NCBI RefSeq assembly: GCF_029504745.1
Contig: NZ_JAQFIQ010000025.1
Coordinates: forward strand, 3,932-35,931
DNA: 32,000 bases
Source of the DNA: Breznakia sp. PF5-3
Lineage (GTDB): Bacteria; Bacillota_I; Bacilli_A; Erysipelotrichales; Erysipelotrichaceae
Reading direction: 5' to 3'
Shown one piece after another: positions 1 to 18,265 of the stretch. Under the pieces are notes generated by a model, which saw nothing but the letters and a program-made list of their open reading frames with translations, was not told the origin of the DNA and ran no database searches. A program made the translations under genes and the position numbers. Within the stretch, counting starts at the first letter, position 1, and every line of letters begins with the position of its first letter.

Positions 1-666
1 AGTATGTGTTGTACTAAGCAACCTTGAAGAAATACTTGTTCCATCAACTGTTAAATTCTTAATTGTTAATGAACCTGTTCCTGCACCATTAACATTTATT
101 GATCCTGCGTTCCATACACAACCATTTCCATCGATTGTAACATTTACATTTGGCATTGTGATTGTAATAGGACCTGATACAAATCCAGAAGCCAATGTAT
201 ATACATCACCTTCTGCAGCAGTACTTAATGCGCTTTGCAATTCGCTAACATTACTTACTGTTTGAGAAATTCTTGGTGCTTTTGCTAAAGATTTTGCAGC
301 ACCTACACTTGGTTCACCTTGTGCGCCCTTTGTCTCTTCTTTTACTGTAACGACTCTTTCTTTTGTTACAACATCACCATCCACAGGATGGATTGCTTCA
401 TACGTGATTGTATACGTATTTTCTACTGAGACATCAAATCCTCCATCGTCCTTAATAGACACGTCCACAGCTTCTCCATTTTCGTCCACCGCGCTAACAC
501 CATCTAGCAAGTTAAATGTCTCATCAAATTGATTAACGCTCACATCTTCAGCTATAATACTTAATTTTTCCTCTAGTACCTCTGCATTCACTATCATTTT
601 TTGGATTGGTATCAATCCCACAAATAGCACTAGCAAAGCAATAAAAGCTTTAATTGATTTTTTCAT
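1..666 (-). CDS. Secreted surface protein, N-terminal part only (gene runs off the window start): signal peptide, Ig-like domain, start of a right-handed beta-helix (pectate-lyase-like) region
   Basis: Hand translation of the minus strand from ATG at 664-666 gives MKKSIKAFIALLVLFVGLIPIQKMIVNAE (signal-peptide-like). It continues with ...NTYTITYEAIHPVDGDVVTKERVVTV (Ig-like) and then SELQSALSTAAEGDVYTLASGF...VTIDGNG...LTIKNLTVDG (beta-helix-type repeats). The frame stays open to position 1. Confidence 0.6.
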   Translation of the reverse strand, partial: MKKSIKAFIALLVLFVGLIPIQKMIVNAEVLEEKLSIIAEDVSVNQFDETFNLLDGVSAVDENGEAVDVSIKDDGGFDVSVENTYTITYEAIHPVDGDVVTKERVVTVKEETKGAQGEPSVGAAKSLAKAPRISQTVSNVSELQSALSTAAEGDVYTLASGFVSGPITITMPNVNVTIDGNGCVWNAGSINVNGAGTGSLTIKNLTVDGTSISSRLLSTTHT

Positions 667-952
667 TTTGGTCGCCCCCCATCATATCAATTTAAATCTT
701 GTTTCATTGTTTATATAATATATGCTTTTACTTACTATTACTATATCACCTTATTTCCTTCCTAATATATCTTGTTATCAACAGATAGAAAAATGTTACC
801 AATCAAGGTTAAAATTATTCCCTCTATAGTATAGACTTTTTAGGAATTAAATTCGTTCATGAAAATTTCATTTTTTTCATATAAATTATTTATATTGTTT
901 AACATTCCTTAATTTCACTCGTAAAAATCCGTAGATATAGCTCGTTTTTCAG

Positions 953-1001
953 ACAAAAATAAGTGAGAAATAGCATCTTTTTAAAATACTACTTCTCACT
1001 T
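953..1001 (-). terminator. Rho-independent terminator of the glycyl radical enzyme operon
   Basis: Minus-strand hairpin AAGTGAGAAGTAGTATTT / TAAAA loop / AGATGCTATTTCTCACTT (18 bp including G-U pairs), followed by ATTTTTGT. It starts 4 nt after the activase stop codon (1006-1008). Confidence 0.8.
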
Positions 1002-1005
1002 TACA

Positions 1006-1893
1006 TCATCCACCTACTTTTAATTCGATGTCATATGCTTTTGCAATATCAATGTATGGAAATAAGTCCTCTTTGTTTAATGTGTTTTCATTCCAAGGAT
1101 ATGGTTTTATCATTCTTTCATACTTACTTTTCCCCAACAAATGATATGGGAGAAAATTAACTTTTTTAATTCCTATCGTTTGCGCATACTTCAATATCGC
1201 TTCCAATGTTTTAGGATCATAGTTAAATTCTGTAATCACTGGAACTCGCAATATAACTTTACGAGGATCAATAGTTTCTAAGTTTTTAAATACAATAGAT
1301 AAATCTCCTCCGCATATTTCACGATACATATTTTTATCAATATGTTTTAAATCAAATAAGTATAAATCAATATAAGGATCAATTTCTTCAATATAAGAAT
1401 TTGAGAAATTCCCACAAGTTTCAATTGCCACGTGAAGATTCTTGTGTTTAAACTCTTTCACTAAAGCCAATAAACTTTTAAATTGAGTAAATGGTTCTCC
1501 ACCAGATATCGTTACTCCTCCATCGCTAGCTTCATAATAGTCAATATCTTTCATAACTTCTTCTACTACATCCGCATAAGACATTGCTTTTCCTGATATC
1601 TCCAAAGCCCCAGTTGGACAATTATCTACGCAAACCTGAAGATTCTTACATTTGCTATCATCATAGTGGAATTCATCATCTACAAAAGTAATTGCTTTGC
1701 TTGGACAACTGTATTCGCAAGTACGACATTTGATACATTTTTTCTTATCATACAATAAAATTGGATTAGGATCTTGTGATTCAGGATTTGCACACCATGG
1801 ACAATGCAATGGACATCCTTTTAAAAATACTACCGTTCTTATTCCAGGTCCATCATGCGTCGCAAACCTTTCAATATTAAATACATTAATCAT
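1006..1893 (-). CDS. Glycyl radical enzyme activating enzyme (radical SAM, with two auxiliary ferredoxin-like 4Fe-4S motifs)
   Basis: 295-aa ORF. It has the GCPLHCPWCANPE CX3CX2C radical-SAM motif, auxiliary Cys motifs CIKCRTCEYSCP and CKNLQVCVDNCP, and ISGGEPF. Its start overlaps the stop of the upstream enzyme gene by 8 nt. Confidence 0.9.
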   Translation of the reverse strand: MINVFNIERFATHDGPGIRTVVFLKGCPLHCPWCANPESQDPNPILLYDKKKCIKCRTCEYSCPSKAITFVDDEFHYDDSKCKNLQVCVDNCPTGALEISGKAMSYADVVEEVMKDIDYYEASDGGVTISGGEPFTQFKSLLALVKEFKHKNLHVAIETCGNFSNSYIEEIDPYIDLYLFDLKHIDKNMYREICGGDLSIVFKNLETIDPRKVILRVPVITEFNYDPKTLEAILKYAQTIGIKKVNFLPYHLLGKSKYERMIKPYPWNENTLNKEDLFPYIDIAKAYDIELKVGG

Positions 1894-4150
1894 ACAATTC
1901 TCGACTTAATAATTCTTCTTGAATATCTTTGGTAAGATTCACAAAGACCGCACTATATCCTGCTACTCGGACAATTAAATCCGGATAATTATCTGGATGC
2001 TTTTGTGCATCCTCTAAAATGCCATGATCCACAACTGTAACCATCAATTGACAACCACCCTTTTTAAAATATGTATCAAATAAAATCTTAATCTTTTCTC
2101 GATCTTCATTAAACATTCGTGGTGTGAATTTAATATTTTGTACACTTCCACCATGATATTTTGCCTTAAATGTTGCCAAAGAATTTAGTGTTGCAGTAGG
2201 TCCACTTTTAGCTGCACCACCTTGTGGATTATTCGCAGGATTCATAAATACTCCTCGTAAGCGCCCATCTAAAGATGCATCTGTTTTATGACCCCAATCA
2301 GTATTCGTTTGGTTATTACTAATTACAATTAAATAATATCCCATGCCTTTATCAATCCCTCTTTGACGAATACCATTCGCAACATACTCAAAAAGATCAT
2401 TCGCTAAAGCATCACAAGCTTTATGATCATTTCCATATTTTGGTGCATTCAATAAATCTTTCCTTAGTTTTGCATGACCTTCAAAATTAACCAAGGCAGC
2501 ATCATGCAATTCTTTCAGTGTGTATTTTTCCTGTTCAAATACCAATGTTTTAATTGCATAAAGAGCATCGCTTGTATTGATGTTGCCATACGTTTCATTG
2601 GTTCCCCCAAGAATCAAAACACCACCATCCAAAAGCGCTTTTCCTCGTTCTATACAATCATCCATCAAAATACTTGTAAATAAGAAAGATACTTCTTTGT
2701 TCATTACATCATACGAATGATATTGAGCTTCGATACTTAAATCAAAGTAATAATCTAATACTTTCTTATATTCACTATATAAATCATCAAAGCGTACATA
2801 GGATTCTAATGGTTTCACTGCAAAAGGAACTTTCCGCTTTCCATCCATGGAATCAATTCCATCATTTAATGTAATATTAAAAATTTTCAATAAATTCAAT
2901 AACGTATTTGGTGTTCCTACACTTTTTGCTGTAATTACAAATTCACCACAGCCAAATGGAACATATTGTTCTGCTGTTTTACGATCTACGCGCATTGCAT
3001 ATTCTACGGCAGGAACATTTACTTCATCATTATATAAGGTAGGATATGTAGCTCCACTACCAATACAATCATATGCCATATCTAAAATATCTTGTGGTGT
3101 TTCTTCATAAATACGAAGTGTAAACTGAGGTTCAACATAACGTGTATCTTTACATACTCGTAAGCATAAACGAGTAAACATATCTGCTGCTTCAACATGT
3201 TCTCTTCCTCGTCCACCAACAATGATTCTACCATTTACGGTTGTTCTTCGATTTTCAATCATTTTCCATAAAGAACGTACATACCGATAAGCATCTTCTT
3301 CACTAAGGCGTCCTTCATCCAAGTCACGTTTTAAATATGGACCTAATACATCGTCCATACGTCCATAATTTATGACTCCTGCAACCATTGCATAAATCCA
3401 AAACAACTGCAATGCTTGATGGAATGTTTTAGGTGTATGATCACGAATATAAAGTAAATCATTTTCCATTAGTTTTAAATCTGCTAGACGTGCAGCATCA
3501 ACATCTTGTTTTGCTTCATGAACAAGTTCAACTTGTTTATCGATTACAACTTTTAAAAGCTTTAAACTTTCTATTGAACTTTGCATAAATGCATTTTGTG
3601 GTTTTGAAGAAATTAAATCAATTAATCCTGGGATTCCATACTTCATAAGTTTTTTATAATCTAACATCATTCCACTTAATCTTGCGGTTGCCATAAAAGG
3701 ATAATCACAATCAATAAACCTACCCGTTGTTGTATCATTTAACACGTCTCGGCAATAGATTGCTTTCACATCATGGTCTTGCCAATATTCATACAACGCA
3801 TCAACACGTTGTCTTTCTTCTTCACTTGTTAATTCATCTTTAAATTTTCTTAATTTATGAAACACACAATAATGACCAACACCACCAATACTTGTAACAC
3901 TACCAAATCCTATTGGTAAAAAATCAAGTCTTCCTGCAAGCAAATCATCTTCTTCAATAGATCTAAACAACACAGGAAAAATTGTTTTTAAACAGTTTAT
4001 CTCTCGCTCTGCTTTATCTAAACCAGCGCTATCTTGATGTGCTTTTGTGTATGCTTCCATAATGGCTAATTGTTCACTTGGTGTTTTTTCACTAGGAATT
4101 TGAACACTCACCTCAACATTTTGTTCGCCATCAATATTAATTTTTGCCAT
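1886..4150 (-). CDS. Glycyl radical enzyme of the dehydratase/lyase (Cys-x-Glu) class, substrate unknown
   Basis: C-terminal glycyl radical loop VRVAGYSAVFVNL and catalytic Cys loop FGCGEF (GCxE type, not the CC of pyruvate formate-lyase). I prefer the ATG at 4150 (MAKINIDG...) to the GTG at 4177 offered by the ORF track, because the GTG would overlap the upstream gene by 26 nt and has no SD. Confidence 0.88.
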   Translation of the reverse strand: MAKINIDGEQNVEVSVQIPSEKTPSEQLAIMEAYTKAHQDSAGLDKAEREINCLKTIFPVLFRSIEEDDLLAGRLDFLPIGFGSVTSIGGVGHYCVFHKLRKFKDELTSEEERQRVDALYEYWQDHDVKAIYCRDVLNDTTTGRFIDCDYPFMATARLSGMMLDYKKLMKYGIPGLIDLISSKPQNAFMQSSIESLKLLKVVIDKQVELVHEAKQDVDAARLADLKLMENDLLYIRDHTPKTFHQALQLFWIYAMVAGVINYGRMDDVLGPYLKRDLDEGRLSEEDAYRYVRSLWKMIENRRTTVNGRIIVGGRGREHVEAADMFTRLCLRVCKDTRYVEPQFTLRIYEETPQDILDMAYDCIGSGATYPTLYNDEVNVPAVEYAMRVDRKTAEQYVPFGCGEFVITAKSVGTPNTLLNLLKIFNITLNDGIDSMDGKRKVPFAVKPLESYVRFDDLYSEYKKVLDYYFDLSIEAQYHSYDVMNKEVSFLFTSILMDDCIERGKALLDGGVLILGGTNETYGNINTSDALYAIKTLVFEQEKYTLKELHDAALVNFEGHAKLRKDLLNAPKYGNDHKACDALANDLFEYVANGIRQRGIDKGMGYYLIVISNNQTNTDWGHKTDASLDGRLRGVFMNPANNPQGGAAKSGPTATLNSLATFKAKYHGGSVQNIKFTPRMFNEDREKIKILFDTYFKKGGCQLMVTVVDHGILEDAQKHPDNYPDLIVRVAGYSAVFVNLTKDIQEELLSRELYD

Positions 4151-4151
4151 C

Positions 4152-4901
4152 TTAATGCTTTGCTTTCTCTGCCTCACGCCAATTGTCTTGATAACCTCCT
4201 AGCAAGTCTACAAAACGTTTCGCTGTTAAATGAGGCCTTGTGATAGCACTACCAACAACCACACTATGTGCTCCTAAGAAAATACACTTCATTGCATCCT
4301 CTGGAGTATAGATATGTCCTTCCATCATCACATATGCATCATCTTTAAAATCACGGCACATCTTAGCAAATTCCCGCATATCTGGTTCTTCAATGTGTTG
4401 TGTTTCTGGAGTATATCCATATAATGTAGGAGCAATGATATCCGCTCCATTTTCAATTGCTCTTAATGCTTCTTCATAATTGGATACATCCGCAAAAATA
4501 ATAGCTTCTGGAATTTCTTTTTTTACTTCTTTAATCAAATCCCAAGCTTGAGTTCCTTCATGTGTCTTTTGATTTGTACAATCCAAAGCAATGATTTCAG
4601 CTCCTGCTTCCCAAACCTGTTTTGCTGATTGTAAAGTTGGCGTAATAAACACTTCTGTATCATCATGCCATATTTTATATAAACCAATTAAAGGTAAATC
4701 TACCTTTTCTTTGATTGCTTTTATCTGTTCTGGAGAATTTGCGCGAATCCCAACAGCTCCTGCCCATTTTGCAGCTTCTGCCATCTTTACCACAATATCA
4801 TCCGTATAGATTGGATCATCATGTTGAACCTGACATGATACGATTAAACCACCTTTAAAACTTTCTAAAATTGCTTTTTTTCTTGCATCTGTTGTTTTCA
4901 T
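4152..4901 (-). CDS. NanE-like protein (putative N-acylhexosamine-6-phosphate 2-epimerase family, ribulose-phosphate-binding barrel)
   Basis: 249 aa with the motif series GGLIVSCQ, GAVGIRAN, LPLIGLYK, FITPT, IIALDCT and VVVGSAITRP, typical of NanE-type barrels. AAGGAGG RBS. ATGA start/stop overlap with the DeoR gene (4898-4901). Confidence 0.7.
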   Translation of the reverse strand: MKTTDARKKAILESFKGGLIVSCQVQHDDPIYTDDIVVKMAEAAKWAGAVGIRANSPEQIKAIKEKVDLPLIGLYKIWHDDTEVFITPTLQSAKQVWEAGAEIIALDCTNQKTHEGTQAWDLIKEVKKEIPEAIIFADVSNYEEALRAIENGADIIAPTLYGYTPETQHIEEPDMREFAKMCRDFKDDAYVMMEGHIYTPEDAMKCIFLGAHSVVVGSAITRPHLTAKRFVDLLGGYQDNWREAEKAKH

Positions 4902-5668
4902 TTCTTTTCCTCCTTACAGATTTTTACTTTTTTATTCTTTTTTATATGTTTTGGATATTCATCAACATATACTTCATCAAAATCTTCAAGATACGCAAAG
5001 GTATACATTGCTTTCATCTCAAACTTTGTATGATCTACCATTGCATATTTTCGTTTACTACGTTCCATAACATTTTTCTTAACCAATCCATTATCAATTT
5101 CAACATTATAAAATTCACCTGTATCCAAATCAAATCCATTGGCACTTATAAAACATCGATCAAAGTGAAGCTTTTTGATTTCTTCAATCGTAATGCTTCC
5201 CCAATTCATATCGTATTTTTCATTGTACTCACCACCCAAGACTAAAATCTTGGCAATTGCTCCACGAAGGTGACGAACAACATAATGAGAATTGGTAACA
5301 ATTGTAATCTTACGATTCATCAAATATGGGGCTAAATAAGCAGTCGTCGTCCCTGAATCAACAAATATACATTCATTCTCTTCAACGACTTGACTAGCAC
5401 ATCGTGCAATGCAATCCTTCTCTTTTTGATTAAGTTTTTCCTTTTCATCTACGGTAACTTCACTAAAGGATGTAATTGTTTCACTGAAGTTATGGGGTAA
5501 TGCCCCACCACGTTCACGTTCAATCTTTCCATCTTTTTCAAGCTTTCGTAAATCTCTTTGAACTGTCGATAAAGAAACATTTAACTCTTTCGACAGCGTA
5601 CTTACACTAATCGATTGATTACTTCCCAATCGTTTAATGATATAGGCTAATCGTTCTTTGGCTAACAT
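4898..5668 (-). CDS. DeoR-family transcriptional regulator
   Basis: N-terminal winged HTH (ISVSTLSKELNVSLSTVQRDLRKLEKDG) and C-terminal DeoR sugar-phosphate-sensor domain (IFVDSGTT, CFISANG). I chose the start at 5668 (GAGGAG 6 nt upstream). The ATG at 5674 abuts the SD directly and would only work on a leaderless mRNA. Confidence 0.85.
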   Translation of the reverse strand: MLAKERLAYIIKRLGSNQSISVSTLSKELNVSLSTVQRDLRKLEKDGKIERERGGALPHNFSETITSFSEVTVDEKEKLNQKEKDCIARCASQVVEENECIFVDSGTTTAYLAPYLMNRKITIVTNSHYVVRHLRGAIAKILVLGGEYNEKYDMNWGSITIEEIKKLHFDRCFISANGFDLDTGEFYNVEIDNGLVKKNVMERSKRKYAMVDHTKFEMKAMYTFAYLEDFDEVYVDEYPKHIKKNKKVKICKEEKK

Positions 5669-5680
5669 AAACATCTCCTC

Positions 5681-5709
5681 ATATATACTATACCTTTATA
5701 GGATGTCAA
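5681..5709 (-). promoter_or_regulatory. Candidate sigma-A promoter of the DeoR/GRE operon
   Basis: Minus strand TTGACA (5704-5709), a 16-17 nt spacer, then TATATA/ATATAT (5681-5687). The predicted transcription start falls at about 5672-5677, on top of the first ATG. Confidence 0.4.
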
Positions 5710-5714
5710 ATGCA

Positions 5715-5750
5715 AGTCATTATTAGTCATATTGAGTCATATTAAGTCAT
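5715..5750. repeat. Four direct AGTCAT hexamers at exact 10-bp spacing (candidate DeoR operator array)
   Basis: AGTCAT occurs at 5715-5720, 5725-5730, 5735-5740 and 5745-5750 (AGTCATTATT AGTCATATTG AGTCATATTA AGTCATGTTT). The array lies between the divergent promoters and starts 5 nt upstream of the minus-strand -35. Confidence 0.75.
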
Positions 5751-5786
5751 GTTTTGATTTTGATTTATAAATTCCTTCAAAATACA

Positions 5787-5815
5787 TTGACACCTAGCCC
5801 TCTCTATGATAAATT
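5787..5815 (+). promoter_or_regulatory. Sigma-A promoter (extended -10) for the T-box leader and ABC importer operon
   Basis: TTGACA (5787-5792), a 17-nt spacer, TAAATT (5810-5815), with TG at 5807-5808 giving TGaTAAATT. Confidence 0.65.
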
Positions 5816-5821
5816 TTAATA

Positions 5822-6089
5822 AACCATTGATTGGGAGATAAAACAAAAATAAGTGCTTATAGAGAGTTGGCCATAGGTGGAAGGCTAATAGAGATGCTGT
5901 TTTGTAAATGGACCCATGAGGGCTAGATGAAAGCTGTAATAGTTAGTATTCAAGACGTTCACCTACGTTACAGGGTTAAGAATGTGATAGCATTTGAAAG
6001 TTGGACTTTTTAGTCAAACAAGGTGGCACCGCATGTGTTTATATACACTTGTCCTTGATGTCTTTTATAGACGAGGACAAGTGTTTTTT
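5822..6089 (+). promoter_or_regulatory. T-box riboswitch leader, specifier UGG (tRNA-Trp)
   Basis: - Stem I elements: GAGATA on the 5' side of the specifier loop, AG bulge AGAGAG (5861-5866), distal loop GGTGGAA.
- The 3' side of the specifier loop reads GTAAA-TGG-A, with TGG at 5909-5911.
- T-box core AACAAGGTGGCACCGC (6017-6032). Its UGGC bulge would pair with a G73-CCA acceptor end.
- Terminator CACTTGTCCT...AGGACAAGTG plus a T-run (6046-6089) overlaps the antiterminator 3' arm. Confidence 0.85.
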
Positions 6090-6140
6090 ATTTCACTTCA
6101 CCAAAATGCATCATCAAACATATATAAGGAGGAAAAGAAA

Positions 6141-7115
6141 ATGAAAAAATTATTATGTTTGGGTTTAAGCATGTTATTTGTTTTTAGTTTAGTTGGTTGT
6201 GGTAATGATGACAGTGGCGATGATAAAGCGTTTAAGGTTGGTATCGTACAAATTGTTGAGCATCCTTCATTGGACACGATTCGTGAAGCAACAGAAAAAC
6301 AATTAAAAACATATGATGGAAAAATCGAAGTATTATACGAAAATGCTGGTGGAGATCAAAGTATGTTAAATACCATCTGCCAACAATTTAAAGAGCAAGA
6401 CGTAGATGTGATTATTGCAATTGCTACACCAAGTGCTCAAGCTGCAGCAAACTTCTCAGATGAAATTCCAGTGGTTTTCTCAGCAGTAAGTGATCCAGTT
6501 GGTGCTGGTTTAGTTAAAGATTTAGAAAAACTAGATGGAAACATCACTGGAACAAGTGATGAAATCCAAGTTGACTTAATTATGGACTTAGCAATCGAAA
6601 TGTACCCAGAAACTAAATCCGTAGGGTTCTTATATAACTCTGGAGAAGCAAATTCAGCTTCTAACCTTGATAAATTGAAAGCATATGCAAAAGATAATAA
6701 TCTTAGTGTTGTTGAAGGCCCTTTTACAAACACGAGTGAAATTCAAGCATCAACACAATCACTCATTGATAAAGCAGATATTATTTTTGCACCAAATGAT
6801 AATAGCGTAGCAAGTGCAATGGATGTCGTATCAAGTCTTACAAAAGATTCAAAAACACCATTGTTTGTAGGAGCTGATTCAATGGTTGGAGACGGTGGTT
6901 TAGCAACCGTAGGTATCAACTATGAAGAACTTGGGAAAGAAACAGGAAACATGGTTATACAAATTTTGGATGGAACTTCACCAAGTGATATTCCAGTAAA
7001 AGTTTTTAAAGAAGACTTAAATGTTTATATTAATACTAGTGTTGCTGAAGCAATTGGCTTTGGTTCAATCGATACACTAAAAGAAAATCACAAGGATGTT
7101 GTTGAAATAAAATAG
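6141..7115 (+). CDS. ABC transporter substrate-binding lipoprotein (COG2984 / ABC_sub_bind type; predicted tryptophan importer component)
   Basis: AAGGAGG at 6126-6132, then ATG at 6141. Lipoprotein signal MKKLLCLGLSMLFVFSLVGC with an LVGC lipobox. The ORF-track start at 5994 lies inside the T-box leader and terminator, so I rejected it. Confidence 0.85.
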   Translation: MKKLLCLGLSMLFVFSLVGCGNDDSGDDKAFKVGIVQIVEHPSLDTIREATEKQLKTYDGKIEVLYENAGGDQSMLNTICQQFKEQDVDVIIAIATPSAQAAANFSDEIPVVFSAVSDPVGAGLVKDLEKLDGNITGTSDEIQVDLIMDLAIEMYPETKSVGFLYNSGEANSASNLDKLKAYAKDNNLSVVEGPFTNTSEIQASTQSLIDKADIIFAPNDNSVASAMDVVSSLTKDSKTPLFVGADSMVGDGGLATVGINYEELGKETGNMVIQILDGTSPSDIPVKVFKEDLNVYINTSVAEAIGFGSIDTLKENHKDVVEIK

Positions 7116-7127
7116 AAAGAGGTTTAT

Positions 7128-8066
7128 ATGAGTCTTAATACAATATTGGGAGCAACGGAACTAGGTTTGATCTTTGCGATCATGTCCCTAGGAATTTACA
7201 TTACTTTTAAAATCTTAAACTTTCCTGACTTAACGGTTGACGGAAGCTTTACTTTGGGCTGTGTGGTGAGTGGCATCTTTGCCATTAACCACCACCCCTT
7301 TCTAGGAATCCTTTTTGCAACGCTTGCAGGTTGTTTTGCAGGAATGATGACAGGCTTTCTTCACACCAAAATGAAAGTTCAATACATCTTAGCTGGAATC
7401 ATCACAATGACAGGACTATATTCCATAAACTTGAAAATTGGAGGTTCTAAACCTAATTTCTCATTATATGGATTTGAGACTATTTTTTCTCACTTTAGAA
7501 ATTTTTTATCATCTACATTACATATTTCTAATGAAGTCATTTTAAAAAATCATAAACTTATTCTATTATTATTAATTTTAATCATCGTTACCACGTTACT
7601 TTATTTGTTCTTTAAGACTCAAAGTGGACTTGCTATTCGTGCCACAGGAAATAACGAAGAAATGGTTCGTGCTTCTTCTATCAATACCGATGCAATGAAG
7701 ATTGCTGGATTAGCGTTGGCAAATGCATTTGTAGGATTATGCGCCTCTATTTATACCCAACACCAAATGTTTTATGATATATCGCAAGGGATTGGGATGA
7801 TGGTAGTCGGTTTAACAAGCATTATTGTTGGCGAGAGTATCTTTGGGAAACGTACGCTTTTAAATAGTTTTATTTCGTTATCACTAGGAGCTATTTTATA
7901 TCGTTTACTCCTATCTTATGCTTTATCTTTGGGAATGGATCCAAACGATTGGAAATTGCTTTGTGCTTCTTTAGTAGCAATCGTGATTTCTTTTCCAACC
8001 GTTAAAACCTATATTCAAAAACGCCAAAAGCGAGCAAAAGCAAAAGGAGGTTCTAAATCATGTTAG
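7128..8066 (+). CDS. ABC transporter permease (COG4120 type)
   Basis: 312 aa and multi-TM. The N-terminal FPDLTVDGSFTLG motif is typical of this permease family. AAAGAGG RBS. Confidence 0.85.
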   Translation: MSLNTILGATELGLIFAIMSLGIYITFKILNFPDLTVDGSFTLGCVVSGIFAINHHPFLGILFATLAGCFAGMMTGFLHTKMKVQYILAGIITMTGLYSINLKIGGSKPNFSLYGFETIFSHFRNFLSSTLHISNEVILKNHKLILLLLILIIVTTLLYLFFKTQSGLAIRATGNNEEMVRASSINTDAMKIAGLALANAFVGLCASIYTQHQMFYDISQGIGMMVVGLTSIIVGESIFGKRTLLNSFISLSLGAILYRLLLSYALSLGMDPNDWKLLCASLVAIVISFPTVKTYIQKRQKRAKAKGGSKSC

Positions 8067-8869
8067 ATGTAGAAAACCTAAGTATTACATTTCATGCTGG
8101 AACAGTAAATGAGAAAAAAGCATTAGATAATGTTTCACTACATTTAGATGATGGTGATTTTATAACTATCATTGGTAGTAATGGTGCTGGTAAAAGCACA
8201 TTACTAAACTGCATTAGTGGAACTTATGAGAATGATGAAGGCTATATTGTTTTAGATGGTAAAGAAATCCAGTTTATGAAAGAACACAAACGCGCCAAGA
8301 TGATTGGACGATTATTTCAAGACCCATTAAAAGGAAGCGCCCCCGATATGACAATTGAAGAAAATCTTGGGCTCGCTTATCGACGTGGAAACAGTAAGAA
8401 TAATCTCTATGAACGTTTCTTAAAAATTGGCTTAACAAAAGATGAAAAAGAATTTATGAAAGAGAAGATTAGTCAACTAGACCTTGGTTTAGAAGAACGT
8501 TTATCAACAAAGGTTGGATTGTTATCAGGTGGACAGCGTCAAGCATTAACCTTGATGATGTCAACAATCAATACACCTACCTTATTATTGCTTGATGAAC
8601 ATACAGCTGCACTAGATCCTAAAACAGCAAAAAAAGTAATGGAAATAACAGACCATATTGTACAAGATAATAAAATTACTACCATCATGATTACGCATAA
8701 TATCCAACAAGCTCTAGCATATGGAAACCGAATGGTGGTTATGAGTGAAGGTAAGATTTTGATGGAGTTCAATAAAGAAGAAAAAGAAAAATTAAGTGTT
8801 GAAGAAGTGATGAAAATATATCACAACAAAAGTACACAAGATCTTTCTGATAAAATGATTTTAGATTAA
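8060..8869 (+). CDS. ABC transporter ATP-binding protein (COG1101 type)
   Basis: Walker A GSNGAGKST, signature LSGGQRQ, Walker B LLLLDEHTAALD, H-loop ITHN. It overlaps the permease gene by 7 nt and has an AAGGAGG RBS. Confidence 0.9.
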   Translation: MLDVENLSITFHAGTVNEKKALDNVSLHLDDGDFITIIGSNGAGKSTLLNCISGTYENDEGYIVLDGKEIQFMKEHKRAKMIGRLFQDPLKGSAPDMTIEENLGLAYRRGNSKNNLYERFLKIGLTKDEKEFMKEKISQLDLGLEERLSTKVGLLSGGQRQALTLMMSTINTPTLLLLDEHTAALDPKTAKKVMEITDHIVQDNKITTIMITHNIQQALAYGNRMVVMSEGKILMEFNKEEKEKLSVEEVMKIYHNKSTQDLSDKMILD

Positions 8870-8882
8870 TTTTTAACCATAT

Positions 8883-8917
8883 AACGTAAATGAAAATTCA
8901 TTTACGTTTTTATTTTT
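8883..8917 (+). terminator. Rho-independent terminator of the importer operon
   Basis: Hairpin AACGTAAATGA / TCATTTACGTT followed by TTTATTTTT, 14 nt after the stop codon. Confidence 0.75.
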
Positions 8918-8971
8918 CTTCATTTATTGTTCACATAATCCCAGTACTTTTTAAGTAATGGAGGAAATTAC

Positions 8972-10471
8972 ATGTATATAATAAAAAATGCGATTCGCAA
9001 TATCTGGCGAACGAAAGGAAAAAACATATTGATTGTAATCATTGTTTTTATCATTGGACTATCATGTTGTATTGCTTTATCAATCAAACAAGCAGCTCAA
9101 AACGCACGCGATACTGGGTTAGATAAGTTAAACATTACAGCAACTATCCAATTCGATCGACAACAAATGATGCAAGAGATGCAACCACCTGAAGAAAGTG
9201 ATGATAGCAGTGCAGAAGACATGCGCGAAAAAATGCGCGATGCAATGGCAAATCAAAACTTAAGTTTAAAAGAATTACAAACCTATGCTAAAGCAGACAG
9301 TGTAAAAGACTTTTATTACACTTCAACAATTTCAATGAACGGAAATGATAATCTTCAAGCGATTAATTCCAACAATTCTATAGTTACCGAGAGTGGTCCT
9401 AGTGGTGAGAGAGAAAGTATTTTCTCCAATAGCGATTTTATGTTAATCGGATATTCTTCTTATGATGCAATGAGTGATTTTAATGATGAAACAAAAACTA
9501 TCAAAGAAGGTGCTTTATTTTCAATGAACAATAAGAATGAAGCTATCATATCTGAAGATTTAGCTACTTATAATTCAATAAAATTAAACGATACCATCAC
9601 TTTGGTAAACCCAAACAATACGAAAGATACACATACTTTAAAAGTTGTTGGTATCTATACAAGTACATCAGAAAATGGACCAATGATGAGTGATCCAGCA
9701 AATCAGATTTATACAAACATAGAAACTACAAATACGATTATTAATGCATCAAGTTTGCTACAAGCAAACATTGATGATGCTACTGAATTAAACGAACAGA
9801 TTAGTGGAACTTATGTATTCAAGGATATAAAAGCTTATGAAGCATTTGAAAAAGAAGCAAAAGCTTTAGGTTTGAGTGATGAATATACCATCGAAAGTAA
9901 TGATGTTGCTCTATATGAACAATCCCTTCAACCCTTAGAAAACCTTGCAAATTATGCAAATACATTCTTATATATTATTTTAGTAGTTGGTGGAATCATC
10001 CTAATTGTTTTCAATTTACTTCGCATCAAAGAACGTAAATATGAAATTGGAGTATTGAGTGCAATTGGTATGAATCGTAAAAAAGTATCTTTTCAATTCA
10101 TCACTGAATTATTTATCATTACAATGTTCTCAATGCTTTTAGCGATTGGTATAGGAAGTGTTACAAGTGTTCCTATCACCAACTCTTTATTAGCAAACGA
10201 AATAACCAATGACACAATGGAAGCACAGATGCCAGAAGACATGCAAGGTGGTGGAAGAAGTATGCCACAACAAAGTGAAACGCTAAGACAAGGTGGACCA
10301 CAAATGGAAAACAATACAAATTATATTCAAGAAGTATCTAGTGCCACTGACTTTTCAGTTATTATAAAACTCTTTGCATTAACAATCATATTAACAATCT
10401 TATCTAGTGGGATTGCAACCCTTACCATTCTACGCTATGACCCACTTAAGATTTTATCAAATAGAGAATAG
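8972..10471 (+). CDS. MacB/FtsX-type ABC transporter permease (4 TM, large extracytoplasmic domain)
   Basis: 499 aa. N-terminal TM (ILIVIIVFIIGLSCCIALSI), an extracytoplasmic domain of about 290 aa, then three C-terminal TMs (FtsX-domain pattern). GGAGG RBS. Confidence 0.8.
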   Translation: MYIIKNAIRNIWRTKGKNILIVIIVFIIGLSCCIALSIKQAAQNARDTGLDKLNITATIQFDRQQMMQEMQPPEESDDSSAEDMREKMRDAMANQNLSLKELQTYAKADSVKDFYYTSTISMNGNDNLQAINSNNSIVTESGPSGERESIFSNSDFMLIGYSSYDAMSDFNDETKTIKEGALFSMNNKNEAIISEDLATYNSIKLNDTITLVNPNNTKDTHTLKVVGIYTSTSENGPMMSDPANQIYTNIETTNTIINASSLLQANIDDATELNEQISGTYVFKDIKAYEAFEKEAKALGLSDEYTIESNDVALYEQSLQPLENLANYANTFLYIILVVGGIILIVFNLLRIKERKYEIGVLSAIGMNRKKVSFQFITELFIITMFSMLLAIGIGSVTSVPITNSLLANEITNDTMEAQMPEDMQGGGRSMPQQSETLRQGGPQMENNTNYIQEVSSATDFSVIIKLFALTIILTILSSGIATLTILRYDPLKILSNRE

Positions 10472-12692: not shown

Positions 12693-13484
12693 TTATAAGG
12701 TCATGTTTTGTCTATATTCCACAGGACTTTGATAACCTAAAGTTGAATGCACTCGCTTATTGTTGAACCAATATACGTATGCGGATAATTCTTGTTCCAA
12801 ATTCAGCAATGATGCAAACGTTCTTTCGCGGACGAATTCAGTTTTGATTATTTTGAAATGTGCTTCTGCAACTGCATTGTCGTATGGATTTCCTTTCCTA
12901 CTTAAGGATCTGTCAATTCCAAATGTTTCTAATACATTATCGATTAAATAATTATCAAATTCATTACCTCTATCCGTGTGGAAAATATTGTATTCAAATA
13001 GATTTCCTTTGATGCTTAAAAATGCTTGTTTCACAAGTTTTGCATCTTTATATTTCCCACAACTATAACCAACAATCTCCCGGTTATACAAATCGATAAC
13101 TACACAAATGTAATTCCATTGGTTATTCACCCTAACGTACGTTAAATCACTTACTATGACTTCTTTTGGGTTTCTGTTATCAAATTCTCGATTTACTTTA
13201 TTTTCTATTTTTGCTTCATTAACAGTTGTCTTATGTACTTTATATTTCTTCACTGTATATACCGATACAAGTCCATTTTGACGCATAATCCGTGCAATTC
13301 TCCTTCTCGAGATACAAATACCTTGTTTCGCTAATGAATGCTTGATTTTCCGTGTTCCATAGACTTTCTGATTATCATTAAATATTCTAACTACAATATC
13401 ATTGTAATTATCAACCTTTGCAACCTTATCTTGGTATTTATAATATCCAGATCTCGAAATATTTAATGCCTTACACATTTTCAC
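12693..13484 (-). CDS. IS3-family transposase OrfB (rve/DDE integrase core)
   Basis: DDE triad context VIVSDLTYVRV, FHTDRGNEF, NAVAEAHFKIIKTE. The N-terminal NISRSGYYKY is typical of OrfB. It has no independent ATG/RBS and is normally made as an OrfAB fusion. Confidence 0.85.
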   Translation of the reverse strand: MKMCKALNISRSGYYKYQDKVAKVDNYNDIVVRIFNDNQKVYGTRKIKHSLAKQGICISRRRIARIMRQNGLVSVYTVKKYKVHKTTVNEAKIENKVNREFDNRNPKEVIVSDLTYVRVNNQWNYICVVIDLYNREIVGYSCGKYKDAKLVKQAFLSIKGNLFEYNIFHTDRGNEFDNYLIDNVLETFGIDRSLSRKGNPYDNAVAEAHFKIIKTEFVRERTFASLLNLEQELSAYVYWFNNKRVHSTLGYQSPVEYRQNMTL

Positions 13485-14981: not shown

Positions 14982-16154
14982 ATGAAAAAAACAATCGTTA
15001 TCGGTGTTACAAGCAGTATCGCTACATATAAAGCGGTACAACTTGTTAGTGACCTGTTGAAATTAGATTATGATGTAGAAGTTATCATGAGTAAAAATGC
15101 ATGCGAATTTATTCAACCATTAACTTTTTCATCACTTACCAAACATAAGACATATGTAGATACTTTTGATCGTGAAGTTGATTATCAAGTAGAACACATT
15201 TCATTAGCAAAAAAAGCAGATGTATTTATGATTGTTCCTGCTACTGCCAATGTGATTGCCAAAGTTGCTCATGGGATATGTGATGATATGCTAACAACCA
15301 CTTTCTTGGCTGCTGAATGTCCTAAAATCATTGCACCTGCAATGAATACAAGAATGCTTAGCAATCCAATTACACAAGACAATCTAAAACGTTGTAAGGA
15401 TTATGGAATGCAAATCGTAGAACCCGAGAATGGGCTCTTGGCTTGTGGTGATCAAGGAGCAGGAAAATTAGCTAAGATTGATGATTTAATTGAGTATATT
15501 GATATGGCAGCCTATAGTGAAAAACCACTGATAGGAAAAAAGGTATTAATAAGTGCTGGTCCAACCGTTGAAAAAATCGATCCTGTTCGTTATATCTCTA
15601 ATCACTCAAGTGGTAAAATGGGATATGCACTAGCTAGAGCAGCAAGAAACATGGGAGCAAATGTAACCCTTGTTAGTGGACCTGTAAATATAAAAAAGCC
15701 AAACGCCATAAACGTCATTGATATTAGCAGTGCCGAAGAAATGGCACAAACAATAAAAGCAAATTATGATGATAGTGATTATGTAATTATGGCAGCAGCT
15801 GTTGCCGACTTCACACCCACACATATGGAAAGTGAAAAAATCAAAAAGAAAGATGCTGTGAATTCATTAGAATTGAAAGCTAGTGAAGACATTCTAAAGT
15901 ATCTTGGAAAGCATAAAAAACATCAGAAACTTTGTGGTTTTGCCATGGAGACAACAAATGTTCTTAAACATGCAAAAGATAAGTTTAAGCAAAAAAATTG
16001 TGATTTGCTCGTTGTAAATGATTTAAACGAACATGGAGCAGGATTTAAAGTTGACACAAATAGAGTCACGCTAATTGATAAACATGATGTTCAAGAATTA
16101 ACACTGATGAGTAAAGAACAATTAGCGTATACTATTTTGAATAAATTAATATGA
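14982..16154 (+). CDS. coaBC: Bifunctional phosphopantothenoylcysteine decarboxylase / phosphopantothenate-cysteine ligase
   Basis: N-terminal flavoprotein domain (IVIGVTSSIATYKAVQLV, VPATANVIAKVAHGICDDMLT) and C-terminal CoaB domain (ISAGPTVEKIDPVRYISNHSSGKMG). Confidence 0.92.
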   Translation: MKKTIVIGVTSSIATYKAVQLVSDLLKLDYDVEVIMSKNACEFIQPLTFSSLTKHKTYVDTFDREVDYQVEHISLAKKADVFMIVPATANVIAKVAHGICDDMLTTTFLAAECPKIIAPAMNTRMLSNPITQDNLKRCKDYGMQIVEPENGLLACGDQGAGKLAKIDDLIEYIDMAAYSEKPLIGKKVLISAGPTVEKIDPVRYISNHSSGKMGYALARAARNMGANVTLVSGPVNIKKPNAINVIDISSAEEMAQTIKANYDDSDYVIMAAAVADFTPTHMESEKIKKKDAVNSLELKASEDILKYLGKHKKHQKLCGFAMETTNVLKHAKDKFKQKNCDLLVVNDLNEHGAGFKVDTNRVTLIDKHDVQELTLMSKEQLAYTILNKLI

Positions 16155-16171
16155 TATTGAGGTGAAAGTGA

Positions 16172-16942
16172 ATGTTAGTAGTTGTAGATATAGGGAATAC
16201 AAATATTACGATTGGATTGTTCAGGGGCGATGATCTCATCGCAAACTATCGTTTGACCACACTTGCTAAGCGTACAAGCGACGAGTATGGATTTTTGATT
16301 ACCAGCTTTTTAAATAATGAGCACATTAAACCAAGTGATGTTCAGGATGTAATCATTGCAAGTGTCGTTCCAAAAATTATGTACTCTTTTAATAATTCAA
16401 TTCGAAAGTATTTTAAAAAAGAACCAATCATTGTTGGTCCAGGAATTAAGACTGGTATTTCAATTAGGATTGATAATCCACGTGATTTAGGTGCTGATCG
16501 TTTAGTTGATGCAGTGGCCGCTTACTATATCCACAAGGGGAATGTCCTAGTTATTGATTTTGGTACAGCTACAACATTTGATTATATCAATGAAAAAGGA
16601 GAGTTTGTTGGTGGAGTAACAAGTCCTGGAATTGAAATTGGAGCACAAGCAATGGCTGCAAAAGCAGCGAAGCTTCCAGAGATTGAAATCAAGGCAAGTC
16701 CAGGAGTGCTAGCTACCAATACAATCGATAGTATGCAAGCTGGTGTATATTTTGGTTACATTGGCCATACGGAATATATTATAAAAAAATTTAAAGAAAC
16801 AGTTTCTAGTGATTTAAAAGTTGTTGCTACCGGTGGGCTAGGTAGAATTATTGCAGAAAATACAGAGATGATTGACGTGTATGATCAGGATCTGACATTT
16901 AAAGGATTAAAGATGATTTATGATCGAACAAAAAAAGGTTAA
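16172..16942 (+). CDS. coaX: Type III pantothenate kinase
   Basis: MLVVVDIGNTNITIGLF, DFGTATTFD and VVATGG motifs of the CoaX/ASKHA fold. Confidence 0.9.
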   Translation: MLVVVDIGNTNITIGLFRGDDLIANYRLTTLAKRTSDEYGFLITSFLNNEHIKPSDVQDVIIASVVPKIMYSFNNSIRKYFKKEPIIVGPGIKTGISIRIDNPRDLGADRLVDAVAAYYIHKGNVLVIDFGTATTFDYINEKGEFVGGVTSPGIEIGAQAMAAKAAKLPEIEIKASPGVLATNTIDSMQAGVYFGYIGHTEYIIKKFKETVSSDLKVVATGGLGRIIAENTEMIDVYDQDLTFKGLKMIYDRTKKG

Positions 16943-17636
16943 TCATTTACATAGTTCCCGTACCGATTTAGAAAAACGGGGATATATTGAACATTACGAC
17001 ACTAGTGGTACTTCAAAAGCTTTAAAACCAAATTTAGAATTATTACACGACAAAACTGCAGTAAACCGCTCACTTGGCGCAAAAATGCTCGTGTATCGTT
17101 TATACAAACACGAAGTTATTGAAGCTTTACTTTTACAACTAGACCGTGAAAAAGCACTCTATACGCGCTTAGAAATTTGCAATACACTATCTCATGGAGA
17201 TGCAAATTGTGCAAAATTAATGATTAAATATCTAGGGAAAATAGGAAAAAACCAATATCATTGTCTACCAAAGAAGATATCAAAGAAAAAAAGTTTTCCT
17301 TTACCTCGTGATATTATAGCCCGTACACTAGGCAGGATGGATAAGACAACAACGCGAATACTGTTGAATGCACTCCCTACCTGCTCTATCACACAAGCAC
17401 GCGAGTTAATCGATGCTATCGGGTACCAATATTTCCACCAAAAAACAAATAAACGACAAATTTTTAATAAATTATATTCATATTACCAAGATTGTGATGA
17501 TGACATCATTCGTTGGAAAATCATCTGTGTCTTTGGTTGGCTAAAACCTTACAGTACAGATATTTTACAATCTATTCCAGATACTGAAGGTATCTTATAT
17601 GAAGAAGCACAAAAAGGCTTACAAAGTAAAAACTAG
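16920..17636 (+). CDS. Hypothetical alpha-helical repeat (HEAT-like) protein
   Basis: 238-aa ORF whose only ATG overlaps the coaX 3' end by 23 nt. It shows a repeated helical pattern (VIEALLLQLD..., IIARTLGRMD..., ARELIDAIGY). The RBS is weak. Confidence 0.5.
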   Translation: MIEQKKVNHLHSSRTDLEKRGYIEHYDTSGTSKALKPNLELLHDKTAVNRSLGAKMLVYRLYKHEVIEALLLQLDREKALYTRLEICNTLSHGDANCAKLMIKYLGKIGKNQYHCLPKKISKKKSFPLPRDIIARTLGRMDKTTTRILLNALPTCSITQARELIDAIGYQYFHQKTNKRQIFNKLYSYYQDCDDDIIRWKIICVFGWLKPYSTDILQSIPDTEGILYEEAQKGLQSKN

Positions 17637-17644
17637 GTTAATTA

Positions 17645-18265
17645 TGAAGTGCACCCCGTTATTTGGACAACCAAGTAATGGAGGTGCATTTTATTATGGT
17701 AAAGTTAACAAGGGATCAAAAAACAAGCATTTATGAAGAACGAAAAAATGGAGCACAGATGTTTCAGAATTTCATATCGCAGCAGGAAAACTTTATTTAT
17801 CCCCCATTTTAGATATGCATAATCGAGAGATTGTATCCTATAACATATCTAATAGTCCAAATTTTAAACAAACGCAAGAAATGCTTGATAAGGCCTTTTC
17901 TAAGTATGAAAAGCTTGATGGTTTATTATTTCAATCGGATCAAGGTTGGCAATATCAAATGTATCAGTATCATAAAGCATTGGCAGATAGAGAAATCATT
18001 CAATCAATGTCGCGTAAAGGGAATTGTCTGGATAATTCACCAATGGAAAATTTCTTTGGAGTAATGAAAAGAGAAATGTTTCATGGACATGAGTTTGAGT
18101 TTAATACATTAGAAGAATTAGAAGTCGCAATGGAAGAGTATATTGATTATTATAATAATCAAAGAATAATAACAAAATTAAAAGGATTAACTCCTGTGCA
18201 ACACAGAAATCAATCCTTAATGATTTAATCGTTAATACAGTGTCCAACTAATTGGGTTCACTTCA
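17645..18265 (+). mobile_element. Internally deleted, non-autonomous IS3-family element (621 bp) retaining both inverted repeats and a 3-bp target duplication
   Basis: The left end TGAAGTGCACCCCGTTATTTGGACA matches the reverse complement of the right end, TGAAGTGAACCCAATTAGTTGGACA, at 21 of 25 positions. TTA flanks it at 17642-17644 and 18266-18268. It carries only about 20 codons of the OrfA N-terminus (from ATG 17696) joined to the OrfB C-terminal half. Confidence 0.8.
17759..18228 (+). pseudogene. Truncated IS3-family transposase OrfB fragment
   Basis: The frame reads TDVSEFHIAAGKLYLSPILDMHNREIVSY...FQSDQGWQY...CLDNSPMENFFGVMKRE. All three DDE residue contexts are present, but the OrfB N-terminal region, most of OrfA and the frameshift window are missing. 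Confidence 0.8.

Follow-up and report, generated by a model that had tools for sequence, protein, structure and literature searches.

A four-gene operon encoding a glycyl radical enzyme (GRE), its activase, a protein resembling NanE (the 2-epimerase of N-acetylmannosamine 6-phosphate) and a DeoR-family regulator occupies positions 1,006 to 5,668 of a 32,000-nucleotide stretch of Breznakia sp. PF5-3 (contig NZ_JAQFIQ010000025.1, positions 3,932 to 35,931; hereafter the window). We find that this operon is real and widely conserved among gut Firmicutes, and that it probably encodes an undescribed anaerobic route for the degradation of a phosphorylated sugar. The GRE superfamily is well known; what is new is an orphan GRE subfamily and a partner unreported for GREs. 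A preliminary description of the same DNA had interpreted the operon as radical chemistry on a phosphorylated (amino)sugar, and the analysis presented here supports that interpretation.

Open reading frame (ORF) calling recovered four minus-strand ORFs at 1006-5674, and Pfam and NCBIfam agree on the identities that the preliminary description had given to all four. These are the DeoR-family regulator (4898..5668, in an ORF extending to 5674; HTH_DeoR and DeoRC), a 249-residue (beta/alpha)8 barrel of the NanE subfamily that is predicted to be a sugar-6-phosphate 2-epimerase (4152..4901; PF04131 and PRK01130), a GRE of an uncharacterized subfamily with 754 residues from its ATG (1886..4150; PF02901 and PF01228), and a 295-residue radical SAM activase with a ferredoxin-like insert (1006..1893; TIGR02494, Radical_SAM, Fer4_12 and Fer4_7). 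A 100% identical 754-residue protein is on record for the GRE. The junctions, read directly, show the coupling that had been claimed, with an ATGA stop/start overlap between the regulator and NanE-like genes (4901-4898) and an 8-nt overlap between the GRE and activase genes (1893-1886); the gap between the NanE-like and GRE genes, given earlier as 2 nt, is a single nucleotide between the TAA at 4154-4152 and the ATG at 4150. The operon does end in a strong terminator, as had been noted: 5 nt past the activase stop lies a minus-strand hairpin of the intrinsic-terminator type (961..1001) whose 19-pair stem is followed by ATTTTTG, and its fold (-22.5 kcal/mol, z = -6.7) was equaled by 0 of 200 shuffled sequences. 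Of the promoter placed near 5700, we could read by eye on the minus strand a promoter-like -35 element TTGCAT (5715-5710) and -10 element TATAGT (5692-5687) with a 17-nt spacer (5687..5715 overall), whereas a consensus promoter scan listed no minus-strand promoter at ~5700; we regard the pair upstream of deoR as a putative promoter. Genes for a microcompartment, an aldehyde dehydrogenase, a phosphotransferase system (PTS) or a kinase, which the operon had been said to lack, are absent from the entire window.

The GRE matches PF02901 (E = 2.8e-118) and PF01228 (E = 9.6e-26) and contains the Cys loop GCGE (C401 and E403) and the glycine loop RVAGYS (G731). Both the glycine-loop and the catalytic-Cys motifs are invariant in 70 aligned relatives, and the Glu of Cys-x-Glu does not vary either within the family or across the wider clade that contains it. 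Judged by these motifs, the enzyme is a member of the Cys-x-Glu class. In GREs of this class a hydrogen is abstracted from a carbinol carbon, the hydroxyl is deprotonated by the Glu, and an adjacent leaving group is expelled; the characterized members are all 1,2-eliminases or ring-opening isomerases that work via a ketyl radical (PMC13450708).

Within the Cys-x-Glu class the enzyme is an orphan, as had been proposed, since every equivalog cutoff is missed widely. Against TIGR01774, the model of the PFL2/glycerol-dehydratase subfamily, it scores 297 bits (cutoff 678), and against equivalog models for HypD, CutC, HpfG/HpsG, PflD, the decarboxylases and pyruvate formate-lyase (PFL) it scores 90-263 bits, where the cutoffs are ~1000 or more (91 bits against 994 for the PFL model TIGR01255, and 209 against 1109 for the PflD model NF007437). 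The best solved or characterized relatives, namely PDB 9RCO, CutC, glycerol dehydratase, HypD, YbiW and PflD, score 190-218 bits at ~25-27% identity. The best of these, 9RCO at 218 bits, is an unnamed GRE from a protease-resistance study and gave no functional lead. When we searched a library of 50%-identity cluster representatives, by comparison, about 130 of the 150 representatives listed scored above the 218 bits that mark the best score of any solved or characterized GRE against this query. The closest relatives outside the orthologue group are 53% and 46% identical, and beyond them lies a cloud of ~750-residue GREs at 30-40% identity.

AlphaFold2 predicts the fold of the GRE with high confidence (pLDDT 93.7, pTM 0.93), and alignments reveal several departures from the solved and characterized enzymes. 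The position of the general-acid His (His164 in glycerol dehydratase, His156 in PflD and His165 in YbiW) is occupied by Gly160, which is invariant in 74 family members and kept in 36 of 40 members of the wider clade. The enzyme also lacks an active-site loop of six residues, which reads ESNGHS in glycerol dehydratase. R157, R308, R316, E519 and N612 form a near-invariant set that is specific to the family and wider clade, and N613, N640, H666 and Q671 are conserved in most members. The enzyme shares with the 1,2-eliminases among GREs (the glycerol and propanediol dehydratases, HypD, CutC and IslA/HpsG/HpfG) the Cys-x-Glu and glycine loops and an activase with a ferredoxin-like insert, and its bit scores to them (190-218) are similar to those to PflD and YbiW. 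It differs from these eliminases in reaching no equivalog, in the replaced His and the deleted loop, and in a gene cassette that is free of microcompartment and aldehyde dehydrogenase genes.

Among characterized GREs, a June 2026 review counts YbiW and PflD as the only two that act on sugar phosphates (PMC13450708). These E. coli enzymes are described as 1,5-anhydromannitol-6-phosphate/1,5-anhydroglucitol-6-phosphate C-O lyases (PflD/YbiW) of an 'anhydroglycolysis' pathway (Ma et al. 2024, as summarized in PMC13450708 and PMC12441222), and for comparison we used their loci ybiV-ybiW-ybiY-fsaA and gldA-fsaB-ptsA-frwCB-pflDC-frwD-yijO. PflD, YbiW and the window enzyme are alike in size (~750-810 residues), in the Cys-x-Glu loop, in having a dedicated activase and, probably, in acting on sugar 6-phosphates. 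Some genomes add a resemblance in gene content, with PTS uptake (of the fructose type in some loci), an AraC regulator, an FSA aldolase and a HAD phosphatase of the Cof type. FSA occurs in 4 loci and the fructose-type PTS in 8 of 76, and the window contains neither. The window GRE is nonetheless only 26-27% identical to PflD and YbiW. Taking residues common to these two proteins as a proxy for substrate contacts, we found His156, the QxESN loop, the R311/S312/K317 insertion and R383, as well as K708, H711, Q713 and N715, to be absent or replaced in the window enzyme. The systems further differ in that the constant partner in the cassette is the NanE-like epimerase and not an FSA aldolase, and in that the cassette is equipped with a DeoR protein and ATGAWT repeats. 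In view of the residues not kept, the doubt voiced earlier that the GRE simply has the function of PflD or YbiW was well placed.

The activase scores 318 bits against TIGR02494 (cutoff 174). It had been described as a three-cluster enzyme, and of that description the radical SAM triad CX3CX2C (C27/31/34) and the first ferredoxin motif (C53/56/59/63) are complete. The second ferredoxin motif is one Cys short: only three are present (82/88/92), because residue 85 (codon 1639-1641) is Leu here while in 59 of 63 family members it is Cys, the second of that motif. The ferredoxin-like insert thus has seven Cys, compared with eight in activases with two auxiliary [4Fe-4S] clusters. Leu85 could be a natural variant, the mark of a weakened activase, or a sequencing error.

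The NanE-like protein clears the cutoffs of PF04131 (172.6 bits against 27) and PRK01130 (251 bits against 189), and its predicted fold is closest to NanE structures (TM-score 0.75-0.79 when normalized to the query and 0.82-0.86 when normalized to the target). NanE enolizes an open-chain aldose 6-phosphate at C2, and the active site of the S. aureus enzyme includes Gln11, Arg40, Lys63, Asp124, Glu180, Arg208 and Tyr149, the last of which contacts the acetamide methyl group (PMC8482478). Q24, R53, K76, D138, E194, R222 and Y163 of the NanE-like protein align with these residues, such that everything needed for C2 epimerization according to S. aureus NanE mutagenesis is kept. Fold, hidden Markov model cutoffs, six catalytic or binding residues and the VG[SG]AxTR motif are thus common to the NanE-like protein and NanE (1YXY, 4UTT, 6VVA and 5ZKN).

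In other respects the GRE-linked copies stand apart. We compared them with a canonical set made up of the solved NanE structures and of second, ordinary NanE copies found in five of the same loci. While the GRE-linked copies are 66-100% identical to one another, they are 39-42% identical to canonical NanE. The motif around the catalytic Lys reads GL[YW]K[IV]WH[DE]DT in the GRE-linked proteins as opposed to GI[IV]K[KR]xY in canonical NanE (K-[IV]-W-H in place of K-x-x-Y), so that the NanE signature x-P-x-I-G-I-x-K-[basic] becomes L-P-L-I-G-L-Y-K-I; the residue following the Lys, which is Lys or Arg in canonical NanE, is Ile or Val in 50 of 50 copies linked to a GRE. Three basic (Arg/Lys) residues conserved in canonical NanE have been lost, and a C-terminal tail of 15 residues, GGYQDNWREAEKAKH (window 4152-4196), has been gained that has no counterpart in canonical NanE. 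This tail is conserved as GGYQDNWR.AE.A.H, with the Y, W, R, E and final H invariant among close relatives, and its DNWR core persists in the branch whose GRE is 53% identical to the window enzyme (L095). It is predicted as a low-confidence helix only, and could be a lid or a docking element. Taken together, the alignments define the GRE-linked proteins as a distinct and highly conserved NanE subfamily; its genes keep company with a GRE gene and in no case with nanA, nanK or nagAB. A weak BLAST similarity between FSA and the NanE-like proteins (E ~1e-4, 22-26% identity over 100-190 residues) was considered as a sign of an aldolase role and set aside as probably generic TIM-barrel likeness.

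Orthologues of the GRE, at 58-83% identity, occur in at least 80 species-level genomes. Their hosts are mostly Erysipelotrichales (Thomasclavelia, Faecalitalea, Faecalicoccus, Holdemanella, Longicatena, Dubosiella, Absicoccus, Floccifex and Solobacterium) and also include Lacrimispora, Hungatella, Peptacetobacter, Listeria immobilis, Lacticaseibacillus baoqingensis and several Coriobacteriia. To define the neighborhood of the GRE gene, ORFs were called in all 76 loci, clustered and mapped around it, with neighbors defined as genes within four genes of it and with a full-flank set of 45 loci that have at least 5-6 kb on both sides. The activase is a neighbor in 63 of the 76 loci (39 of the 45 with full flanks), DeoR in 50 (32 of 45), and the NanE-like gene in 48 (32 of 45), on the same strand every time. 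Genes are arranged as DeoR-NanE-GRE-activase in the window, most commonly as GRE-activase-DeoR-NanE, and elsewhere as NanE-GRE-activase; this variation in order speaks for a partnership maintained by selection and against mere inheritance of synteny. Searching in the reverse direction, we found that Faecalibacillus and Clostridium vincentii have NanE-like proteins with 84% identity to that of the window and that these, too, sit in GRE cassettes (one Faecalibacillus NanE-like sequence is indexed in 1718 blocks of the assembly collection). Immediately upstream of the gene for the GRE with 53% identity to the window enzyme there is again a NanE-like gene. The NanE-like gene is therefore no chance neighbor of the GRE gene; it is missing in a Lachnospiraceae variant, which has a fructose-type PTS instead, and in a few other loci. 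In a mirror-tree comparison, pairwise identities of the GRE correlated with those of the activase at r = 0.85 and with those of the NanE-like protein at 0.46, a test that is uninformative for the latter because the protein is nearly invariant. Full-text searches of a literature library returned no account of a GRE paired with a NanE-like protein, in line with the preliminary description.

Some individual cassettes merit description in their own right. In Hungatella sp. UBA4396 (L022), a second GRE gene, whose product is 50% identical to the window GRE, lies with its own EIIA, EIIBC and activase genes (269-5300) a few kb upstream of a PTS-DeoR-GRE-activase unit, and the two GREs may be a pair of paralogues with different sugar specificities. 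In Thomasclavelia ramosa (L001, regions 1-9675 and 15231-17622) the cassette directly follows conjugation and type IV secretion genes (TraG, TrbL, PrgI and a CHAP lysozyme), and a DDE transposase interrupts its HAD phosphatase gene, which suggests that the cassette is on, or adjoins, an integrative conjugative element. The cassette is also present on two contigs labeled Segatella copri and Bacteroidaceae (L021 and L033), where it is 74% identical to the enzyme from Firmicutes, reflecting either mis-binning or recent transfer into Bacteroidota.

When 324 proteins encoded in the flanks of 69 dereplicated loci were classified with Pfam, the only recurring families were HAD phosphatases (~10) and PTS components (~13 loci). 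Together with the DeoR regulator, these neighbors lend support to the phosphorylated-sugar context suggested earlier. The PTS comes in two kinds. A fructose-type EIIABC PTS is present in 8 of the 76 loci, in all 8 of which the NanE-like gene is absent, and a mannose-type PTS is present in 6 loci, all 6 of which have the NanE-like gene; both arrangements occur inside Lachnospiraceae. Among full-flank loci, the fructose-type PTS is found in 0 of 32 with the NanE-like gene and in 6 of 13 without it (hypergeometric p ~2e-4, calculated by hand and uncorrected for relatedness of the genomes). The split is consistent with an epimerase required only after import of the 'wrong' epimer. The fructose-type PTS is 43% identical to E. 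coli FrwC, and the models closest to it are mannosylglycerate- and fructose-like.

The DeoR-family regulator, composed of an N-terminal helix-turn-helix (PF08220, HTH_DeoR) and a DeoRC sensor (PF00455), is built like repressors of the GlpR, AgaR, SrlR and FruR/LacR type but reaches the cutoff of none of the equivalog models against which it was compared, its best matches being GlpR, AgaR and SrlR. It more likely starts at 5668 than at 5674, because the ribosome-binding site GAGGAG (5680-5675) leaves no spacing before the ATG at 5674 but 6 nt before that at 5668. Upstream of its gene we noticed an element that had gone unmentioned before: four direct minus-strand ATGACT repeats at an exact 10-bp spacing (5750-5715), touching the -35 element. 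Tandem direct repeats phased by the helical turn are a common operator layout in the DeoR family. A search for the pattern ATGA[ACT]T-N4-ATGA[ACT]T in 1.4 Mb of related loci returned 59 matches compared with 3-6 in shuffled sequence, and 46 of the 59 lie at most 250 bp upstream, on the same strand, of the start of a GRE, fructose-type PTS, NanE-like or DeoR gene. The repeat is present in 30 of the 76 loci, ahead of whichever gene opens the unit, and from this placement the tandem ATGAWT repeat is probably the operator of the DeoR protein. Its occurrence ahead of the fructose-type PTS of the Lachnospiraceae variant places that PTS in the same regulated unit as the cassette.

We consider the cassette to be a DeoR-repressed catabolic (or salvage) unit for a hexose-type sugar with a 6-phosphate, a reading to which we assign a probability of roughly 0.4. 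The best reading of the GRE reaction is a radical beta-elimination on a hexose-6-phosphate-type sugar supplied by the epimerase. In the order of steps that we infer, the sugar would be phosphorylated on uptake, by the adjacent PTS in some genomes and by a housekeeping system in the case of the window. Lys76 of the NanE-like protein, with the Gln24/Arg53 oxyanion hole and Glu194, would enolize the open-chain aldose 6-phosphate at C2 and turn a gluco-type epimer into the manno-type epimer that the GRE would accept. The activase and S-adenosylmethionine would place the radical on Gly731 of the GRE, from where it would move to Cys401 and lead to abstraction of a hydrogen from the carbinol carbon of the substrate; with Glu403 taking the hydroxyl proton, the resulting ketyl radical would expel the adjacent leaving group, possibly a hydroxyl, the ring oxygen or an acetamido group, to yield a deoxy-keto sugar phosphate that may be handled by aldolases or phosphatases encoded nearby or elsewhere. 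The DeoR protein would bind the tandem ATGAWT repeats over the promoter and be released by a sugar phosphate. According to this scheme, a gluco-type aldose 6-phosphate would enter through a mannose-type or housekeeping PTS, and a fructose-type PTS would bring in the right epimer, for which no epimerase would be needed. Beyond this outline we suggest, more tentatively, that the GRE may carry out a reaction type new to the superfamily, a ketyl-radical elimination on an open-chain or pyranose manno-hexose or N-acylhexosamine phosphate, the substrate coming from a dedicated NanE-derived epimerase of changed specificity.

In favor of the scheme are the hallmarks and coupling of the GRE and activase genes, the chemistry of the Cys-x-Glu class, the epimerase residues kept by a dedicated partner, the PTS split, the HAD phosphatases and PTS parts in the flanks, and the repeat ahead of the first gene. 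In addition, a manno-type theme is apparent in the mannose-6-phosphate isomerase (PMI) genes of about six loci and in the similarity of the fructose-type PTS to mannosylglycerate/fructose-like systems, and GRE relatives at 36-40% identity sit among sugar genes. Three of these relatives were sampled from the large ~750-residue clade, which as a whole appears uncharacterized: L093 has genes for GH38, RpiB and lyxose isomerase around it, together with those for an RPE-family epimerase and a ROK kinase; L096 lies beside an AraC regulator, a GFO/IDH/MocA oxidoreductase and a transporter of the MFS_2 type; and L097 shows an AraC regulator and an activase only.

Several observations weigh on the other side. 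Glucose 6-phosphate, mannose 6-phosphate and N-acetylglucosamine 6-phosphate (GlcNAc-6-P) already have simple non-radical routes. Most loci, that of the window included, have no transporter, kinase or downstream enzyme, which means that the pathway cannot be closed from sequence. The PTS association comes from few and partly related genomes, and in seven full-flank loci both the NanE-like gene and a PTS are lacking. The replacement of the general-acid His by Gly160 implies that the leaving-group chemistry may differ from that of known enzymes. Finally, a PflD-activase-FSA cluster adjoins the cassette in two genomes and FSA is present in four loci, and this adjacency points to anhydro-sugar chemistry, in which enolization of the substrate in the manner of NanE is impossible.

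The last of these points leads to the strongest rival, which we think less likely than the scheme above: like PflD and YbiW, the GRE would form a 1-deoxy-ketose phosphate by opening the ring of an anhydro-sugar 6-phosphate (of the 1,5-anhydroglucitol, 1,5-anhydromannitol or 1,5-anhydrofructose type), the NanE-like protein would act on a carbonyl intermediate or product (3-epimerizing or enolizing 1-deoxy-ketose 6-phosphate, or acting on anhydrofructose 6-phosphate), and an FSA-type aldolase would then give triose phosphate and hydroxyacetone. In L007 (15366-19167) and L031 (12037-15837) the cassette stands back-to-back with genes for a PflD orthologue, which shares 57% and 54% identity, respectively, with the E. 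coli protein, and for the activase of that orthologue and FSA (~45% identical to FsaA), and FSA is also found in L027 and L077. The accessory set mirrors that of the E. coli ybiW and pflD loci (fructose-type PTS, Cof-type HAD, AraC and an Fe-alcohol dehydrogenase), the GRE relative at 40% identity adjoins an RPE-family sugar-phosphate epimerase, and GFO/IDH/MocA oxidoreductases, the family that includes the known anhydrofructose reductase, recur. However, the window GRE is only 26-27% identical to PflD and YbiW and lacks nearly all the polar residues that these two share; a true PflD in L007 and L031 would make the function redundant there, and the absence of the NanE-like gene from loci with a fructose-type PTS is left unexplained. 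The NanE site, moreover, suits a C1 aldehyde that lies five carbons away from the phosphate (PMC8482478), and 1-deoxy-fructose 6-phosphate would be out of register with it.

The NanE-like protein could instead be a true GlcNAc-6-P/N-acetylmannosamine-6-phosphate (ManNAc-6-P) epimerase, with the GRE a new C-N (acetamide-releasing) or C-O eliminase on ManNAc-6-P. This is a special case of our best reading, with a defined substrate, and we judge it quite improbable. It would explain why the protein passes the NanE cutoffs and keeps Y163, and it would suit a canonical NanE at most 10 kb from the cassette in five loci (L007, L031, L044, L051 and L075; just beyond the PflD cluster in two of them, at 20095-20766 in L007 and 16778-17443 in L031), a GH94 phosphorylase gene directly after the NanE-like gene in Faecalibacillus, GH18 and glucosaminidase genes near some loci, and carbon-nitrogen hydrolases and an amidase in a few flanks. 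Yet the coexistence of canonical NanE and the NanE-like protein in the same loci speaks for different substrates, Ile or Val stands where the published NanE signature has a basic residue following the catalytic Lys, three further conserved basic residues are gone, and no nagA, nagB, nanA or nanK is tied to the cassette (none was seen in the window or among the recurrent flanking families). The GH18 protein carries LysM domains and resembles a spore-cortex enzyme, and a cheap hydrolytic route for these sugars already exists. The carbon-nitrogen hydrolases were rejected as a sign of acetamide release, as their genes are on the opposite strand and in two genera only.

Less probable again is detoxification, whereby the GRE would destroy a non-metabolizable sugar-phosphate analogue that builds up after non-specific PTS uptake, the product being dephosphorylated and discarded. 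Such a role would fit the lack of a dedicated transporter or downstream pathway in most loci and the status of HAD phosphatases as the commonest accessory gene, and in other systems 1,5-anhydroglucitol 6-phosphate is known as a toxic, dead-end metabolite (PMC12441222). Nutrient use, on the other hand, is what the 14 loci with dedicated PTS genes preceded by the predicted operator fit, a costly oxygen-sensitive enzyme with a dedicated epimerase would be unusual for repair, and detoxification overlaps the other explanations instead of replacing them. As for a chance neighborhood or a known function, with an ordinary PFL or glycerol dehydratase beside a NanE-like gene from unrelated sialic-acid metabolism (as public annotation, 'pyruvate formate lyase family protein' and 'N-acetylmannosamine-6-phosphate 2-epimerase', would have it), it is effectively excluded by the single Cys followed by x-Glu in place of the Cys-Cys of PFL, the failure against TIGR01255 and the other equivalogs, the translational coupling, a partnership kept across phyla and in several gene orders, the distinct NanE subfamily to which the partner belongs, and the upstream repeat common to the loci.

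Other genes accompany the cassette more sporadically. PMI occurs also as a PMI-ROK fusion in the 53% branch, a DeoC aldolase with an RmlD-like reductase in three loci, GFO/IDH/MocA oxidoreductases in four, a FucO-like dehydrogenase in eight and a split transketolase in one. A seemingly 'conserved' opposite-strand neighbor (cluster c21) was dismissed as an antisense-ORF artifact of some high-GC loci, judged by eye from composition. The remainder of the window holds an ABC transporter, insertion sequence (IS) fragments, and genes of coenzyme A and arginine biosynthesis. The transporter, of the PF04392 type (binding protein, permease and ATPase; 5994-8869), is divergent from the cassette, and a similar one lies on the same strand as the cassette in another Erysipelotrichaceae genome (L012, 6408-9088). 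We rejected it as a partner of the cassette, given that it recurs in L012 only and has no ATGAWT repeat ahead of it; its proximity probably reflects synteny rather than function. Two IS3-type integrase-core (rve) ORFs are at 12693-13484 (minus strand) and 17815-18228 (plus strand, a truncated fragment), and 1-667 on the minus strand holds the 5' portion of a gene that encodes a signal-peptide-bearing secreted protein and runs past the window edge.

GREs drive consequential anaerobic chemistry in the gut, including the formation of trimethylamine, hydrogen sulfide and p-cresol and the use of hydroxyproline and anhydro-sugars, and according to the June 2026 review whole GRE clades are still without experimental validation (PMC13450708). 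The cassette described here is compact and highly conserved, is carried by prominent gut Erysipelotrichales (Thomasclavelia ramosa, Faecalibacillus, Holdemanella, Faecalitalea, Longicatena and Dubosiella), and comes in PTS variants that narrow the choice of substrates. Discovery of its substrate would add a GRE reaction, reveal a nutrient niche for these bacteria, and give a function to a NanE subfamily now annotated as a sialic-acid epimerase. If the GRE does carry out a new reaction type, the GRE and epimerase would constitute a third route of the 'radical glycolysis' type and provide the first characterized foothold in a large clade of ~750-residue, sugar-linked GREs.

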